From assembly GCA_038231435.1 (NCBI GenBank), contig JBBRLJ010000001.1:128001-192000 (forward strand): 64,000 nucleotides of DNA. The letters run 5' to 3'. The stretch comes from Planctomycetota bacterium (lineage in GTDB: Bacteria; Planctomycetota; UBA11346). Position 1 is the first letter of the stretch; the number at the start of each line of letters is the position of its first letter. The notes under the pieces were generated by a model, which worked only from the letters and a program-made list of their open reading frames with translations, was not told where the DNA came from and did not search any database. This document shows, piece after piece, positions 37,458-43,692 of this stretch. Position numbers and translations under genes: made by a program.

Positions 37458-40400
37458 ATGGCCCTGCCCCCCCTGCCCACCAAGCCCAACCAGCAGCTGA
37501 TCAACCACACGCTCGATCACGAGCTCCACGAGGAGCACGACCGGCGCCTGTCCCAGGCGCGCGACCTCGGGCGGCGGATCCGCGCGCGGCTCGCGGGCTG
37601 GCGGCTGCCGCTGCTGGCGGTCCGCACCACCTACAGCCTGCTGCGCGGCACCGCCTCGCCGGAGCAGTGGGCTCAAGCGCTGGTCGGGCTGCGTGGCGAC
37701 GACGCCGACTCGTCGCTCCAGGCGGCGAAGGACCGGCGCGGCGCGAATCATCCGTCCGACCAGGCCGCCGGTGGCGCGGTGCTGGCGGCGGTGCGCGCCC
37801 TCGAGCGCGCGCGCACCTCAGGAGCGGCCGTCGCCGGACCCGCGCGCGTCCAGGACGCGCCTACGCTCGCCGTTCGGTCCGATCACGATCGCGATGCCGA
37901 TAGCGATGGCGATGCCGATGCCGATGCCGAGCCGTGGGCGATCCTCGCCGACCGCGACGACGTGCTCGGGCTGCCGGCCTGCATCGATCACTGGGGGCGC
38001 GGCAAGGTCGGCATCGGCGCCACCGTCGAGCTCGCCCGGGGCGAGGGCGAGGACGAGGACGAGGACACCCTGCTGCTCGCCCCGACCGAGACCGCCTACG
38101 CACGCCTGTGCCTGCTGCTGTCGTGGCGGCACGAGGAGCCCGAGGCATGGGCGCGGTGGCGGCGCGGTGGCGCGGCCCGCGACGGCCTCGACTGCACCGG
38201 CCTCGTCGCGCTGGTCCGCGACGAGGCGTGGGGCCGCCGCCTGCGCGATCTCGGCGCCGAGATCTGGTGGCGCGCGGACGTCCGTCCCCAGCAGACGCCG
38301 GTGGCGTTCCCCGTCGCGTCGGCGCCGATCCTCACACACCACGACGACCGCGGCCGCGCCGCCGCCGGCATCCTCGCCGCGATCCGGCAGCGGCGCACGG
38401 TGCGCCGCGAGGACGCCCGCCATGCCGGGAACGCGCTCACCGACCTGTGCGCGATGCCCGCGGCGTACGCGGGATACGAGGAGCAGCTCGACGCCGGCGC
38501 CGCGCTCGCCGCGCGCTGCCGCTGGCTGCCGGGCGGGCAGGACGAGCAGGGGCGACCGCAGCTGCATCTGCCGCCGCGCGGGGCCGGGCTGTTCGGACGC
38601 GACATCGATCCCGATGCCCTGCTGCGCGAACGCGCCGAGACGGGACTGGTCGACCGCTACCAGGCGCAGTGCGACGTGGCCCGCGCCGCGGCGCGGGCAC
38701 GGCTCGAGAAGGAGCTGCGCATCATCGCCGACAAGCGCTTCGCCGGCTACATCCTGATGGTGTGGGAATTGGCCGACGGCCACCACACCTGCGGTCGCGG
38801 ATCGGGCGCCTCATCGATCGTCTGCTACTGCCTGGGCATCACCAACGTGGACCCGGTGAAGTACCATCTGGTCTTCGAGCGCTTCCTGTCGCCCGAGCGC
38901 ATCGATCCGCCGGACATCGATGTCGATTTCGCCTGGGACGAGCGCGACGAGGTCATCGGCCGCACCATCGCGCGCTACGGGCGCGAGCACGTGGCGATGG
39001 TCGCGACCCACCAGGGCATGCACCGCTGGGCGGCGCTTCGCGAGGCAGCGCGCGCGCATGGCATCCCCGATGGCGCCATCGCCACGATGAGCCAGCGCCT
39101 GCGCGAATCCGATCTCTATGGACAGGGCGTCGAACCGCCCGAACCGTGGCCAGCCATCATCGCCGCCGCCGACGCCATCGCCGGCGCGCCGCGCCACCTT
39201 GGCCTGCACTGCGGCGGGGTGGTCATCACCGCGCGTCCAGTGCGCGAGCTGGTGCCGGTGCATCCGGCGGCGAAGTCGCTCGAGGTGCCCGGACATGGCC
39301 GGCTGCGCGTGCCGACCATCGCCTGGGAGAAGGACGGCGCCGAGGATCTCGGATTCATCAAGGTCGACGTGCTCGGCAACCGCAGCCTGGCGGTGCTGCG
39401 GGACTGCCTCGAAGACCTCGAGGTGGATGGCAATCCGCTCGAGCTGCTCTCGTGGAACCCGATGGAGGACGAGCGGACGAAGGACATCGTCGCGCGCGGA
39501 GCGACCATGGGCGTGTTCTACGTCGAGAGCCCATCGATGCGCCAGCTGCAGGCCAAGGTCGGCAGTCCGGATTTCGACCGGCTGGTGGTGCACAGCAGCA
39601 TCATCCGCCCAGCGGGCACCAACTTCATCGACACCTACATCCGACGCTACCACCGCTCGAAGGAGACCGGCGGCGACGTGCCGGAAGCGGAGCTCCGGGA
39701 ATGGTATCCGCACCCGGCGCTGCGCGGCCTGCTCAGCGACAGCTTCGGCGTGCTCTCATACCAGGAGGACGTGATGCTGGTCTCGCAAGCGCTCGCCGGC
39801 TTCGGCAGCAAGGAGGCCAACGAGCTGCGCAAGGCGCTGGGGCGCAGCGACACCGGGACCCGCCTGCAGGCGCTGGCGAATCGTTTCCGCGAGGGCTGCC
39901 TGGCCAACGGCGTCGCCGAGGATGTCCTCGACTGGGTGTGGCGGATGATCTCGTCGTTCGCGGGCTACAGTTTCTGCAAGGCGCACTCCGCCAGCTACGC
40001 GGTGGTGAGCTTCCAGTGCGCCTACCTCAAGGCCCACCATCCGGCGCACTTCATGGCGCGGGTCATCGCCAACCAGGGCGGCTACTACCACACCGCCGCC
40101 TACGTCGAGGAGGCGCGCCGCCTCGGCGTCGAGATCCGCGGCCCGTGCGTGCTGCGCAGCGCCTGGAAGACCCAGCGCGAGGGCGCGGGCGCCATCCGCA
40201 TCGGTTTCCAGCTGGTCACGGGCCTGTCGATGGCGACGGCGGAGGCGATCATCAGGGAACGGTCCGTGGTCCGTCGTCCGTCGTCCGTCCTCGGACATCA
40301 GGACGGCTGTCCCTTCCGGAGCCTGCGCGAGCTGAAGTCCCGCTGCCGCATCCAGGCCGACGAGATGAAGGCGCTCGATGACGGCGGCGCCTTCGACGCG

Positions 40401-41042
40401 CTGCTCCCGCACCTGAACACGGCACAGCGCACCTGGCTGGTGACGGTGGTGTCGCGCGAGGCCGAGGCGTTCATCCATCCGCCGAGCGTGGCCGGGCAGG
40501 CGATCCTCGATCTGCTCGCCGAGGACCTCTCCGATCCGGTGCCGCCGCCGCTGCGCGACCTGCCGCTCGAGGTGGTGCGCCAGCGACGCTACGCCTGCCT
40601 GGGCCTGTTGCCCGAGCGCCATCCGCTGTGCCTGTGGCACCTGCCGAAGCGCGCGGTGTTCTGCCGCGACATCACCGCGCGCGCCGATCGCCGGCGCCTC
40701 TCGGTGATCGCCTGGCCGATCGCGCGCAAGCGCGTCAGCGCCACCTACAGCAAGGACGAGGACGGCGTGGAGCTCGACACCCCGCGCTTCGAGGCGATGT
40801 GCTTCGTCACCGTCGAGGACGAGACCGGCCTGACCGAGACCGTATGGTTCCCGGACGCGTACCGCGCCTATGGCGCACTGCTCGAGCGCGGCGAACCGCT
40901 GCGTCTCACCGGTACCGTCGCAGTCGCCTTCGGCTACCCCACGCTCACCATCGAACACGCTGACTGTCGGTGGGGGGCTACGGCCCCCCAACATCGGCCT
41001 GCCCCTACCGACCGGGGCCTTACGCCGGCCTGCCCCCCATGA
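37458..41042 (+). CDS. dnaE2: DNA polymerase III alpha subunit, DnaE2 (error-prone)-like
   Basis: GRGSGASS, PPDIDVDF, HCGGVVI, KVDVLGNRSL, YQEDV, FAGYSFCKAHSASYA, OB-fold FVTVEDETG; degenerate PHP domain. Confidence 0.85.
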   Translation: MALPPLPTKPNQQLINHTLDHELHEEHDRRLSQARDLGRRIRARLAGWRLPLLAVRTTYSLLRGTASPEQWAQALVGLRGDDADSSLQAAKDRRGANHPSDQAAGGAVLAAVRALERARTSGAAVAGPARVQDAPTLAVRSDHDRDADSDGDADADAEPWAILADRDDVLGLPACIDHWGRGKVGIGATVELARGEGEDEDEDTLLLAPTETAYARLCLLLSWRHEEPEAWARWRRGGAARDGLDCTGLVALVRDEAWGRRLRDLGAEIWWRADVRPQQTPVAFPVASAPILTHHDDRGRAAAGILAAIRQRRTVRREDARHAGNALTDLCAMPAAYAGYEEQLDAGAALAARCRWLPGGQDEQGRPQLHLPPRGAGLFGRDIDPDALLRERAETGLVDRYQAQCDVARAAARARLEKELRIIADKRFAGYILMVWELADGHHTCGRGSGASSIVCYCLGITNVDPVKYHLVFERFLSPERIDPPDIDVDFAWDERDEVIGRTIARYGREHVAMVATHQGMHRWAALREAARAHGIPDGAIATMSQRLRESDLYGQGVEPPEPWPAIIAAADAIAGAPRHLGLHCGGVVITARPVRELVPVHPAAKSLEVPGHGRLRVPTIAWEKDGAEDLGFIKVDVLGNRSLAVLRDCLEDLEVDGNPLELLSWNPMEDERTKDIVARGATMGVFYVESPSMRQLQAKVGSPDFDRLVVHSSIIRPAGTNFIDTYIRRYHRSKETGGDVPEAELREWYPHPALRGLLSDSFGVLSYQEDVMLVSQALAGFGSKEANELRKALGRSDTGTRLQALANRFREGCLANGVAEDVLDWVWRMISSFAGYSFCKAHSASYAVVSFQCAYLKAHHPAHFMARVIANQGGYYHTAAYVEEARRLGVEIRGPCVLRSAWKTQREGAGAIRIGFQLVTGLSMATAEAIIRERSVVRRPSSVLGHQDGCPFRSLRELKSRCRIQADEMKALDDGGAFDALLPHLNTAQRTWLVTVVSREAEAFIHPPSVAGQAILDLLAEDLSDPVPPPLRDLPLEVVRQRRYACLGLLPERHPLCLWHLPKRAVFCRDITARADRRRLSVIAWPIARKRVSATYSKDEDGVELDTPRFEAMCFVTVEDETGLTETVWFPDAYRAYGALLERGEPLRLTGTVAVAFGYPTLTIEHADCRWGATAPQHRPAPTDRGLTPACPP
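40261..40288 (+). repeat. 4x heptamer SGTCCGT inside dnaE2
   Basis: ggtccgt ggtccgt cgtccgt cgtccgt. Confidence 0.8.
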
Positions 41043-41173: not shown

Positions 41174-41812
41174 ATGTTCGAGCCCGCCGTCACCCTGAGC
41201 GACTACGTCATCGCAGCCGAATGCGCGTGGTGCGCGTGGTGCTGCGAGCGCTGGCCCGGACGGTCGCGGCCGTGGACGACGCTGTTCTATGTATCGCTGA
41301 TCGTCGCTGGCGTGGTCGGCGGCACCTCGCACGGCTTCTATCCCACGGACGGCGAGCGCGTGCACGAAGCGTTGTGGACGGCGACCCTGCTGTCGATCGG
41401 CGTGACCGCGCTGGCGATGTGGGGGATCTGTGCGAGCGGCCTGAAGCGCCAGAGCTTCCGCTGGGTGGTCGGCACCGCGACCGCGCTGCTGGTGGCGTAC
41501 GCCATGGCGGTGCTGATCGGTGCGCGCGAGTTCAGGGTGGCGATCGCCTTCTACCTGCCGCCGGCAGCGGCGATGCTCGGGCGCTTCGCGTGGCTGTGGT
41601 GGCGCAGGCGCGACCGCCGCTTCGGCGCCGGCACCGCCGGCGTGGCCCTGACCTTCGTGGCGGCGGCGATCCAGGCCCTGCGCCTGGACCCGCATCCGTT
41701 GTTCGATCACAACGCGCTCTACCACGCGGTCCAGGCGCTGGCGCTGCTGGCGATCCTGCCGGCGGCGAAGGCGTTGGCGGTGGGCACAGAGAGGCCCGCA
41801 GCAAGAGTCTAG
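41174..41812 (+). CDS. Multi-pass membrane protein (DUF6962-like)
   Basis: EPAVTLSDY N-terminus, GGTSHGF, HNALYHAVQ near the C-terminus; several TM segments. Confidence 0.7.
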   Translation: MFEPAVTLSDYVIAAECAWCAWCCERWPGRSRPWTTLFYVSLIVAGVVGGTSHGFYPTDGERVHEALWTATLLSIGVTALAMWGICASGLKRQSFRWVVGTATALLVAYAMAVLIGAREFRVAIAFYLPPAAAMLGRFAWLWWRRRDRRFGAGTAGVALTFVAAAIQALRLDPHPLFDHNALYHAVQALALLAILPAAKALAVGTERPAARV

Positions 41813-41932
41813 GAGATCGAGACGACAGGATGGAAGCGGGGCAGCAGCGATCAGAACCGATTGCAACCGTTGCACATCACCGCGTCCTTCCTGATGCCTG
41901 TTCCAACCGAATGTCCCGGCGAACCTCCCAGC

Positions 41933-41959
41933 GAACCTCCCGACGTCTGCTCCGTCTAT
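41933..41959 (+). promoter_or_regulatory. Candidate ECF-sigma promoter of the RiPP operon
   Basis: GAACCT-N16-TCTAT, resembling the sigmaE-type GAACTT-N16-TCTRA, 25 nt upstream of the first precursor. Confidence 0.4.
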
Positions 41960-41984
41960 CAGGTATCCTCCCCTGGAGCCTGCC

Positions 41985-42242
41985 ATGAAGATCCCCGACC
42001 ACGTCCTCGACCTGATGCTGATCGGCGCCATCGGCGCCGTCTGCTTCATCCCGCATGGGACCAAGGCCGCGGTCGCCGCGATGCCGACCACGAAGGCTCC
42101 CATCGCCAGCGTGGTTCCAGACGTCCCGCTCCACACGGATCCGGTGAACGCTCCGGGTTGCGCCATGCCCCGCGCCGATGCGCCCACGGTGGGCCGGCCG
42201 ATCGTCGCCCACGATCCCTGTCCCGGCTGCGGACGGGGCTGA
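41985..42242 (+). CDS. RiPP precursor 1 (85 aa, ends DPCPGCGRG), chryseobasin/ChrA-like
   Basis: GGAG at 41975-41978; hydrophobic N-terminus; CPxCGxG C-terminus; adjacent to a DUF692 gene. Confidence 0.85.
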   Translation: MKIPDHVLDLMLIGAIGAVCFIPHGTKAAVAAMPTTKAPIASVVPDVPLHTDPVNAPGCAMPRADAPTVGRPIVAHDPCPGCGRG

Positions 42243-42244
42243 CC

Positions 42245-42499
42245 ATGAAGATCCCCGACCACGTCATCGACCTGATGCTGATAGGCGCCATCGGCGCCAT
42301 CTGCTTCATCCCGCATGGCGGGAAGCCGGCCCCCTCCGCGCTCTCGGCACGCTCAGCGGTGGAGACGGCTGGCGCGCCTGCTGGATGCGTGACACCGGTG
42401 CAGCCGCCGTCCGCAACTCCGATCGTCGGCCAACCTGCTCCGCCGGCGCGGCCGATCCGCTCCCGCGGCGACTATTGTCCGGCCTGCGGCATGGGCTGA
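42245..42499 (+). CDS. RiPP precursor 2 (84 aa, ends DYCPACGMG), chryseobasin/ChrA-like
   Basis: ATG 2 nt after the precursor 1 stop; first 75 nt 71/75 identical to precursor 1; CPACGMG terminus; hidden inside ORF 41861..42499. Confidence 0.88.
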   Translation: MKIPDHVIDLMLIGAIGAICFIPHGGKPAPSALSARSAVETAGAPAGCVTPVQPPSATPIVGQPAPPARPIRSRGDYCPACGMG

Positions 42500-42503
42500 G
42501 CGG

Positions 42504-43427
42504 ATGCCCACGCGGCTGACGCCGGTGCGCGTGGGCCTGTCGTTGATGACGACGGAGGATTTCCGCGCCGCGTCGCTGCCGCTGTTCGCCGATGGCGTGG
42601 TCGATGCGCTGGAGTGGAGTCCAGACATGCTCTGGGCACCATGCGGGGAGCGCCATCCCGAGCCAGCGTGGTGCGCGGCGCTGCTCGATCACTACGAACA
42701 CGCGGGCCGACTGAGCGGACACGGCGTGCATCTGTCCGCCTTCTCTGCCGAGGCTCCCACGCGTCACGAACGCTGGTTCGCCCGCCTGGCAGGCGATCCC
42801 CGCCGCTACCGCCGCTTCTCGGAGCACGTCGGCTTCATGTCCGCTCCCGGCTTCGCCGATGGTGCGCCCCTGCCGGTGCCGCGCTGTGCCGAGACCGTGG
42901 CGCTCGGCGCTGCGGCGCTGACCCGCATCGCGCGTGTGACCGGCGTCCCCGCGGGGCTGGAGAACCTGGCGCTCGCCTTCAGCGAATCCGAGGCCTGGGA
43001 GCAGGGTCCGATGCTCGCGGACATCCTATCTGCGGCGTCGACGGCCTCGACGGCGGAGGCGCCGGCATTCCTGGTGCTCGATCTGCACAACCTGTGGTGC
43101 CAGGCGGTGAACTTCGCCATCGACCCCGAGCGCCTCCTGGCGGCTTTTCCCCTGGAGCGGGTGCGCGAGCTCCACGTCTCGGGCGGCAGCTGGTCGCATC
43201 CGCGAGCCGATCCCCTCGGACGGCGATTCCGTCGCGACACCCATGATGGCGCCGTGCCCGACGAGGTCCTCGCGCTCATCGAGCCGGCGCTGGCGCGCTG
43301 CCCGCTGCTCGAGGACGTATTCCTGGAGCGGCTCGGCGGAACCATGCTGACCGAAGATGAGCGTGGCGGATTCCGCACCGATTTCATGCGCCTGCGCGCG
43401 CTGGTATATGAGGCCGCGCATGCCTGA
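42504..43427 (+). CDS. DUF692 family multinuclear non-heme iron oxidase (MNIO; ChrH/MbnB/TglH-like)
   Basis: HGVHLS, FSEHVGF, GLENLA, LDLHNLWC, ELHVSGG, DTHDG, FLERL metal-ligand pattern. Confidence 0.92.
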   Translation: MPTRLTPVRVGLSLMTTEDFRAASLPLFADGVVDALEWSPDMLWAPCGERHPEPAWCAALLDHYEHAGRLSGHGVHLSAFSAEAPTRHERWFARLAGDPRRYRRFSEHVGFMSAPGFADGAPLPVPRCAETVALGAAALTRIARVTGVPAGLENLALAFSESEAWEQGPMLADILSAASTASTAEAPAFLVLDLHNLWCQAVNFAIDPERLLAAFPLERVRELHVSGGSWSHPRADPLGRRFRRDTHDGAVPDEVLALIEPALARCPLLEDVFLERLGGTMLTEDERGGFRTDFMRLRALVYEAAHA

Positions 43428-43692
43428 CCACGACCACCCCGCCATCAACCTTGCCACCTACCAGAGGCGCCTCTTGGAAGCGCTGCACCACGCCGATGTG
43501 GATTCGGACGGATATGCGATCGCGCGCGAGTTGCGCGCCGATCCGCTGCTCGCACCACTGGCGGAACGGATGGGGCGCTGGGAGCCGCGCAGCCTCGAGA
43601 CCGCGGCGGAGCTGGCGCGGCGATGGGGGCGAGTCGATCCGGCGACGACGGCCGAGGCGCCTCATTCCGATGGCACTCGCGATCAGACCTGA
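43420..43692 (+). CDS. Small helical protein, putative MNIO partner
   Basis: ATG overlaps the MNIO stop (ATGCCTGA); 90 aa; LATYQRRLLEAL helix reminiscent of DUF2063-type partners. Confidence 0.6.
   Translation: MPDHDHPAINLATYQRRLLEALHHADVDSDGYAIARELRADPLLAPLAERMGRWEPRSLETAAELARRWGRVDPATTAEAPHSDGTRDQT

Follow-up and report, generated by a model that had tools for sequence, protein, structure and literature searches.

The question raised by positions 41985 to 43692 of the window (the whole stretch of DNA that was analysed, 64,000 nucleotides in length) is whether four closely packed genes of a planctomycete encode a system for peptide modification related to that of chryseobasin, and, if so, what it makes and how it differs from its relatives. 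The best explanation overall is that it is most probably a minimal ChrH/DybH/MelH-type cassette, which closes rings in the tails of two exported peptides. An earlier note on this DNA had described a RiPP unit that combines a ChrH-related MNIO with two CPxCGxG precursors, in a host probably outside the Bacteroidota, and this description is borne out, the host being a member of the Planctomycetota. The four ORFs are present as that note had them, with gaps of 2 nt and 4 nt followed by an overlap of 8 nt, and their translations end in DPCPGCGRG* (precursor 1) and DYCPACGMG* (precursor 2). The features, in window coordinates, are as follows.

41985..42242, + strand: precursor 1, 85 aa, with an N-terminal leader/hydrophobic part, a Pro/Ala-rich spacer and the C-terminal core CPGCGRG
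41985..42059, + strand: leader block of precursor 1, codons 1-25, with motif residues 1-11 and hydrophobic stretch 8-22
42219..42239, + strand: core of precursor 1, C79-P-G-C82-G-R-G, the Arg variant (from sequence)
42245..42499, + strand: precursor 2, 84 aa, with the same leader as precursor 1, a different spacer and the canonical core CPACGMG
42245..42319, + strand: leader block of precursor 2, codons 1-25, with predicted docking residues 3, 4, 7, 8, 10 and 11
42476..42496, + strand: core of precursor 2, C78-P-A-C81-G-M-G (from sequence), the core of ChrA, DybA and MelA1
42504..43427, + strand: MNIO (DUF692), 307 aa, catalytic TIM barrel of the ChrH/DybH subfamily without the fused C-terminal bundle
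42555..42710, + strand: MNIO helices 1 and 2 (residues 18-34 and 54-69), predicted docking surface with F28, W56, A59, L60 and H63 (from the model)
43420..43692, + strand: ORF4 (Hc), 90 aa, separately encoded C-terminal helical domain, MelHc-like

The 5.2 Mb host genome contains 80,027 six-frame stop-to-stop segments of at least 30 aa, and exactly two of these end in CPxCGxG, namely precursors 1 and 2; the cassette is therefore not a product of chance. Nor is the tandem an assembly artefact, as it is carried by contigs from two other sequencing runs. Positions 41728-42537 are covered without a single difference by a contig of X3, a run that belongs to the study of the possible source. A contig of 326 nt from another study (X5), representing a related strain, shows the same order, running through most of precursor 1 into the beginning of precursor 2, with 22 substitutions and a longer spacer. 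All four proteins have already been called as genes in a public collection. The two precursors are identical at 71 of their first 75 nt, with two synonymous and two conservative changes, diverge strongly in mid-sequence and converge again at the core. This leader-spacer-core pattern is, as far as sequence can tell, that of a duplicated RiPP gene. Each spacer has one extra cysteine (C59 in precursor 1, C48 in precursor 2). Both precursors lie below the cut-offs of the known families, precursor 1 scoring 10.7 bits with NF050125 (cut-off 40) and precursor 2 scoring 16.3 with the same model and 13.8 with NF050124 (cut-off 50). In a search for close homologues with four candidates the precursors matched only each other, and a scan for promoters and terminators gave no sites.

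The identification of the third gene as a DUF692 enzyme was confirmed by a PF05114 match of 86.8 bits (cut-off 25). Of its four NCBIfam matches the best is to NF050165 (ChrH) with 242.7 bits, where the equivalog cut-off is 600, and the scores for BufB (65.4 bits, cut-off 310) and HvfB (50.2 bits, cut-off 360) are far lower. The enzymes of two of the fetched loci, L064 and L067, exceed the ChrH cut-off, and the MNIO shares 39.7-41% identity with these (39.7% over 295 aa in the case of L064). A phylogeny, proposed in the earlier note as a check, places it in the clade of these two ChrH enzymes on a long stem (support 0.889 in a tree of 121 sequences), with its position inside that clade receiving support below 0.3. 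The His/Asp/Glu ligand residues expected of an MNIO are present and conserved with six aligned ChrH-type enzymes. Its iron-site residues are H73, H108, E153, D193, N196, H224, D245, H247 and E275, the His, Asp and Glu residues among them being invariant in alignment A1 and conserved with the ChrH-type enzyme of L064. Their order and spacing follow those of the DybH pairs H65/H102, D179/H210 and D228/H230, which have been named as iron ligands (bioRxiv 10.64898/2026.10.27.762324), and three iron sites with His/Asp/Glu ligands are predicted. The structure model is a TIM barrel (pLDDT 93.5) with TglH and MbnB as best PDB matches. By these sequence criteria the enzyme is assigned to the ChrH/DybH subfamily.

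The 90-aa product of ORF4 had been taken for a different partner protein. It instead corresponds to the C-terminal domain of ChrH, encoded separately. A profile of fused tails, built from the 19 long homologues (364-419 aa) among the 120 matches listed, was run against the 80,027 host segments and found ORF4 as its sole significant match (E-value 1.5e-14, the next being 0.14), and the partner is therefore the C-terminal domain of the enzyme itself, encoded apart from it. A family alignment of ORF4 and 42 split partners matches 10 ChrH-type tails with a profile probability of 92% and 13 Bacteroidota tails with one of 96%. When built from only the 10 ChrH tails, which are too divergent, a profile did not find ORF4, and the profile of the 13 Bacteroidota tails ranked it first but with an E-value of only 16. 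The structure model shows a soluble protein with four helices at residues 11-69. A role as a ChrI-like or RRE partner was considered and rejected, there being no Pfam or NCBIfam match, no Atlas hit and no clear fold match (Foldseek gave none with an E-value below 0.001 and the best, VIA, reached Z 4.2); none of 40 members of the Hc family matches DUF2063, although a distant relationship to that family may still exist. Enzymes of the ChrH family are described as all carrying a helical bundle of 7.8 kDa, which is separate in Cyanobacteria, and MelHc binds MelH and is needed for the -4 Da product (PMC13056109). By homology, the MNIO and Hc would assemble into a single cytoplasmic iron oxidase made of two pieces, as shown for MelH/MelHc.

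Among 82 related loci, the enzyme is split in 49, fused in 21, truncated in two and unassigned in 10, eight of the last being ChrH-like with divergent tails of 77-79 aa. The search for CPxCGxG-terminal ORFs beside homologues, also suggested in the earlier note, gave 44 two-Cys precursors in 38 dereplicated loci (one per cluster of 70% identity, with the cassette's own locus left out). The residue X of CxxCG-X-G in these is Met in 23, Arg in 15, Leu in four, Gln in one and Ile in one, and the exact core of precursor 1 was found again in two loci (L108 and L109). Two or three precursors are present in five of the 38 loci, three of which (L043, L061 and L074) combine Arg with Met; selection for such pairing was considered, and three of four two-precursor loci lies within chance (p 0.26). 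Duplicated precursors and a variant core had been presented as distinctive, yet with split enzymes in 49/82 loci, Arg in 15/44 precursors and tandems in 5/38 loci, no feature claimed as distinguishing is rare. The same applies to the claim of a related but distinct system outside the Bacteroidota, as the hosts of CPxCGxG precursors and ChrH-type enzymes published to date include Planctomycetota and Myxococcota (PMC13056109); tandem precursors, Arg cores, the docking of the leader or the accession of this very enzyme could already feature in the supplementary data of the published work. A clade with single-Cys CGRG precursors, coupled to a Zn-dehydrogenase, was also seen and is apparently an undescribed branch.

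An enzyme of subfamily grade is absent from 60 relatives searched, including 36 of the family (best score 108 bits vs 414) and two of the genus that are 61% and 79% complete. Within the phylum, 3 of 400 genomes have one, as do 12 of 401 genomes in the phylum of locus L002; among 401 genomes of another class, only the centre genome does. A single-protein scan of genome contigs gave four loci only. Third-position GC is slightly lower in the cassette (0.79-0.87) than in three neighbours (0.90-0.92). The cassette is sporadic and probably mobile. It is flanked by a DUF6962 gene and a convergent ORF of 1386 aa without a match. Two relatives (G002 and G010) have a different gene behind DUF6962, by eye a flavin-oxidase-like ORF. 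The DUF6962 gene and other flanking genes were rejected as parts of the system, being carried by none of 98 related loci.

The N-termini of the precursors have a feature that is shared far more widely than their spacers. The motif M-x-[ILV]-[PS]-x-x-[ILVMT]-[LIM] is present in 25 of the 32 precursors with an ATG before the hydrophobic stretch, the remaining 12 of the 44 being 5′-truncated or without such an ATG and left out of the count. By comparison, it occurs at 8 of 2,723 comparable Met codons in host frames and at none of 172 in the loci. As the motif was derived from the very sequences counted, and kin are not independent, the pattern was fixed beforehand and then tested on later loci. 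It matched all four two-Cys precursors in 12 new loci, whose enzymes are 49-65% identical to the earlier ones, as well as one of one on a Hymenobacter plasmid, giving 5/5 later two-Cys precursors. Of 18 single-Cys precursors found by position, six match the strict motif and 12 a looser pattern (positions 3, 7, 8 and 11) that was picked afterwards and has a null count of 32/2,723; large TPR-like substrates are mostly without it. In two loci (L085 and L088) the motif stands ahead of a separate hydrophobic segment. It is apparently undescribed in the main texts on ChrH-type systems, where the precursors count as leader-independent and one of which calls the ChrH-type N-terminus relaxed or unconstrained (PMC13056109).

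What the motif may do was addressed with a complex model of three chains, in which a segment of precursor 2 (residues 1-34) was combined with the MNIO and Hc. The model scores 0.74 in three runs, while the best of three controls, which were not hydrophobic signal peptides, scores 0.02; the leader alignment consisted of motif-bearing sequences. The docking mark is reached by 116 of 157 solved and by 2 of 215 mismatched pairs, counts which are only a rough guide for this kind of job. At least 55% of contacts are shared between the runs, with a partner pLDDT of 56-58. Confident contacts are made by leader residues 1-4, 6-8 and 10-15 with MNIO residues 18-34 and 54-69, and the candidate role of Hc as leader binder was dropped as the model gave no confident contact between the two. 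In the model, leader residues 3, 4, 7, 8, 10 and 11 lie on F28, A29, W56, A59, L60 and H63, which form the faces of helices 18-29 and 55-66. F28, W56 and L60 are typical of the ChrH subfamily and present in none of 15 members of the sister clade. The complex model thus supports binding of the leader to the MNIO as a prediction. It has been argued that signal-bearing MNIO substrates must have some mechanism against premature export, and masking of the signal by the partner has been suggested for bufferins (PMC12452194). It is tentatively proposed, at somewhat under an even chance, that the ChrH subfamily has a dual-use leader, residues 1-11 of which dock between MNIO helices 1 and 2 and mask the signal until cyclisation, and that such a leader marks the single-Cys CGRG branch too. 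These first 11 residues might, with a similar degree of caution, form a helix whose docking on the MNIO favours capture ahead of export and is non-essential for catalysis. A seven-residue core on GFP is modified by DybH (PMC12636315) and truncated DybA reacts in vitro (bioRxiv 10.64898/2026.10.27.762324), and a non-essential helix that improves capture fits both this sufficiency of the core and the need to prevent premature export.

The strongest alternative, which stands at close to an even chance, keeps the same chemistry and regards the motif as only the inherited start of a signal peptide or a feature related to Sec/SRP, with recognition of the core alone outrunning export. The GFP result with DybH speaks for it, as does the finding that lipidated DybA is largely modified in E. 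coli, which its authors read as modification being fast enough. The strict motif is also missing in 7 of the 32 precursors (large TPR-type and some others), and groove and motif do not co-vary among typical members; co-variation was looked for and rejected, F28/W56/L60 being kept in 22/26 enzymes with the motif vs 6/9 without. Against it, loci from Bacteroidota and Myxococcota and Planctomycetota-like loci all keep the motif while having nothing in common in their spacers, and it precedes N-termini of SPI, lipobox and anchor type alike. It is rare in crudely called host genes with a hydrophobic N-terminus (8/1,707), and the modelled contacts coincide with conserved leader positions 3, 4, 7, 8 and 11. 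In addition, the three enzymes without W56 for which a precursor is visible (L052, L134 and L135) all have precursors without the motif, these enzymes being divergent overall.

The dual-use leader and its alternative have the same chemistry in common. A -4 Da macrocycle/hydantoin with a free thiol has been shown for DybA, ChsA, HymA and MelA1 (PMC13056109; bioRxiv 10.64898/2026.10.27.762324), and in homologues a thioaldehyde is formed first, the hydantoin arises from the Gly and Met amides and macrocyclisation comes last (bioRxiv 10.64898/2026.10.27.762324; PMC10214503). The earlier note had cited, for Chryseobacterium, a thiomethyl-bearing product made by ChrH with ChrI. ChrI is however reported to be dispensable, in a text that leaves the function of the product open (PMC13056109), and S-methylation occurs spontaneously with SAM (bioRxiv 10.64898/2026.10.27.762324) and is thus probably non-enzymatic, so that the expected product is instead the -4 Da free-thiol congener. 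In the cassette, the second core Cys would be oxidized to a thioaldehyde in an O2-dependent step, the carbonyl of this Cys would shift between the amide nitrogens of the following Gly and Met/Arg to give the hydantoin, and the thioether macrocycle would be closed with the first core Cys, for a net change of -4.03 Da with a free thiol remaining. Judged from homologues, this macrocycle/hydantoin is very probably formed on the core of precursor 2 and probably also on the Arg core of precursor 1. The two precursor genes would then give one Met congener and one Arg congener, each a small macrocycle with a thiol, attached beyond the inner membrane by a flexible tether.

It is unlikely that precursor 2 is the only substrate, with precursor 1 being unmodified, yielding a shunt product or drifting as a duplicate. 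The Met amide nitrogen becomes part of the hydantoin (PMC10214503), which places the Met/Arg position in the reacting part, and the shared motif has been given as CPxCxMG (PMC12636315); no test of an Arg core was found in the texts consulted on ChrH-type systems, and the string CGRG is absent from the two main texts searched. Against this, Arg-only cores are present in 12 of 33 single-precursor loci and in all four later-found ones, and there the Arg core must therefore be the working substrate; with Arg at the Met position in 15/44 precursors and again in 4/4 later ones, it is a maintained variant. The core of precursor 1 keeps both Cys and both Gly, and the tandem persists in the related strain represented by the X5 contig. 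As regards tolerance, HymA has a CPGC ring with Leu at the Met position and is still modified (PMC13056109), and substitutions are tolerated at ring positions (PMC12636315).

With both precursors probably modified, the likeliest job of the products, put forward here by analogy as a possibility that falls clearly short of even, is that of an envelope scavenger of a soft metal (copper) or of electrophiles. Arg replacing Met in a third of the cores and the lack of metal genes recurring nearby count against a metal role, as a survey that covered 145 of the 161 candidate ORFs next to the enzyme in 42 loci gave no recurring copper, transport or redox family. The separate bufferin-like cluster of the host counts against it as well. 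Alternatively, though this is doubtful, the macrocycle might be a ligand for an anionic envelope target, such as the pyrophosphate of lipid II in the manner of the nisin B ring, or a signal. Its likeness to the lantibiotic B ring has been pointed out (PMC13056109), an Arg is often adjacent to the ring and the same neighbour survey fits such a role, but no immunity, protease or export genes are encoded, and the tethered free thiol together with the metal-binding of exported MNIO products (bufferins and oxazolins; PMC12452194) favours metals.

Each precursor has a 15-residue hydrophobic stretch at its N-terminus (mean hydropathy 2.4), and residues 1-10 carry an atypical net charge of -1, where 24 of 25 relatives have 0 or higher; in precursor 2 there is no AxA site near the stretch. 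As no methyltransferase, protease or transporter is encoded in the cassette, the hydrophobic N-terminus would itself send the modified peptides to the Sec pathway, either as a signal that is cleaved or as a membrane anchor that stays in place. The peptides would thus appear to be exported in signal-cleaved or membrane-anchored form rather than as lipoproteins, there being no lipobox. It is quite improbable that the products are lipoproteins of the DAG-RiPP kind, with a non-canonical lipobox directing lipidation to C20: a Cys is kept at position 20 of both precursors at the end of the hydrophobic stretch, and among 25 relatives that bear the motif 14 have a Cys between positions 14 and 36, in many cases within a lipobox-like A/S/T-G-C context, but C20 is preceded by Val or Ile (G-A-V-C, G-A-I-C) instead of Gly, Ala or Ser, is followed by further hydrophobic residues, and neither strict nor relaxed lipobox patterns match either precursor.

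The cassette adds a planctomycete member with small peptides and a split enzyme to the ChrH subfamily, and a single operon that would supply an Arg congener beside the canonical Met core. Its near-identical leaders over unrelated spacers, with Met vs Arg cores, are a natural test case for a dual-use leader, and the motif and residue-level docking prediction make the premature-export question testable with a few point mutants. The motif is also a handle for precursor discovery that is independent of the core, and docking of the leader, if true, would be relevant to the use of these enzymes as protein-tagging tools.

Among known systems, bufferins and oxazolins (BufABC, HvfABC; PMC12452194) have MNIO substrates with a Sec-type N-terminus, as is probable for the cassette, and share the problem of modification before export. 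They belong however to another MNIO subfamily, with thiooxazole chemistry and a DUF2063-RRE partner, whereas an RRE is absent from the cassette, where the modelled contacts of the signal are with the MNIO itself. With the chr cluster (ChrA/ChrH/ChrI/ChrE/ChrP; PMC10214503) it shares the core of precursor 2, which is identical, and an enzyme of about 40% identity, while ChrA-like precursors in the fetched loci have the same N-terminal motif. Unlike chr, it lacks ChrI (a DUF1772 membrane protein), ChrE and ChrP, has a split enzyme, falls below the cut-offs of NF050165 (242.7 of 600) and NF050124 (13.8 of 50), and S-methylation is not expected. DybA/DybH, ChsAH and HymAH (PMC13056109; PMC12636315; bioRxiv 10.64898/2026.10.27.762324) resemble it in having a small precursor directly upstream, in conserved iron ligands and in the core chemistry expected here, with the CPGC ring also found in HymA. 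It differs from the DybA-type DAG-RiPPs in its split enzyme, two precursors and lack of a canonical lipobox, as well as an NF050125 score below the cut-off. The mel cluster of Candidatus Melainabacteria (MelA1/MelH/MelHc; PMC13056109) has the same split MNIO and helical domain, a CPACGMG core, a hydrophobic N-terminus and no ChrI, and a -4 Da unmethylated product is expected in the cassette as in mel. In contrast to the 34 kDa TPR protein of mel, the cassette has two low-complexity peptides of 8.4-8.6 kDa (84 and 85 aa, where mel-type substrates are defined as exceeding 30 kDa), one of them with an Arg core, and its host is a planctomycete. It thus combines a mel-like enzyme layout with a DybA-like substrate size and is neither a strict chryseobasin system nor a canonical DAG-RiPP.

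In one branch of the MNIO subfamily, a Zn-dependent alcohol dehydrogenase (ADH_N and ADH_zinc_N domains) stands behind the MNIO and its helical partner domain Hc, an arrangement found in nine comparison loci, about seven of them independent:

L028, L031, L053, L094: dehydrogenase fused
L040, L051, L059, L124, L125: dehydrogenase as the next gene

The precursors of all nine end in a single-Cys CGRG core, with up to three of them in tandem, and the dehydrogenase was found in 0 of 65 loci of the two-Cys type. A macrocycle is impossible for these single-Cys precursors, and it is plausible that a thioaldehyde/aldehyde or episulfide intermediate is reduced in this branch, a chemistry which would be new.

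Further core variants adjoin subfamily enzymes in six loci (L102, L123, L134, L135, L025, and L097). These include single-Cys CGMG on large proteins, two of which lie in tandem in L102, as well as CGGG, CSFG and a YGMG-ending peptide which carries the N-terminal motif and has no core Cys.

The leader also varies. The precursors of L049, L052, and L100 lack the hydrophobic stretch and possess a leader of another type with a V-R/K-A-G motif at its end, their cores being CLTCGRGL, CCGCG, and CPTCGIGG plus tail; they are possibly cytoplasmic or use another export route. The enzyme of L052 has lost W56 and L60. In the precursors of L085, L088, and L079, a basic linker and then a separate membrane segment come after the N-terminal motif, so that the motif stands apart from the export signal.

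The Planctomycetota loci L003, L004, and L110-L122 encode MNIOs that form a sister clade (174-198 bits), in which the predicted leader-groove residues are missing and the Hc-like partner is longer, being either separate or fused. Upstream in L003, L004/L110, L111, and L112 is a protein of 300-420 aa or longer, with CPxCGM approximately 15-20 residues from its C-terminus.

In the window, the following also lie near the cassette:

37458-41042: DNA polymerase III alpha-like ORF, 1194 aa
43683-50494, minus strand: convergent operon

The polymerase ORF has NTPase, finger, HhH, and OB domains with no PHP-domain match at its N-terminus, and we take it to be probably a DnaE2-type copy. The last gene of the operon shares 10 nt with the stop region of Hc. 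Two of the operon's ORFs look by eye like vWA (Bat-type) proteins, and its 1386-aa ORF gave no Pfam match.

The host genome also has a second MNIO cluster:

contig C19, 54274-56642: 117-aa Cys/Lys-rich peptide with signal, 289-aa MNIO and DUF2063-like ORF

On inspection by eye, this cluster looks like a bufferin (Buf2-type) operon.
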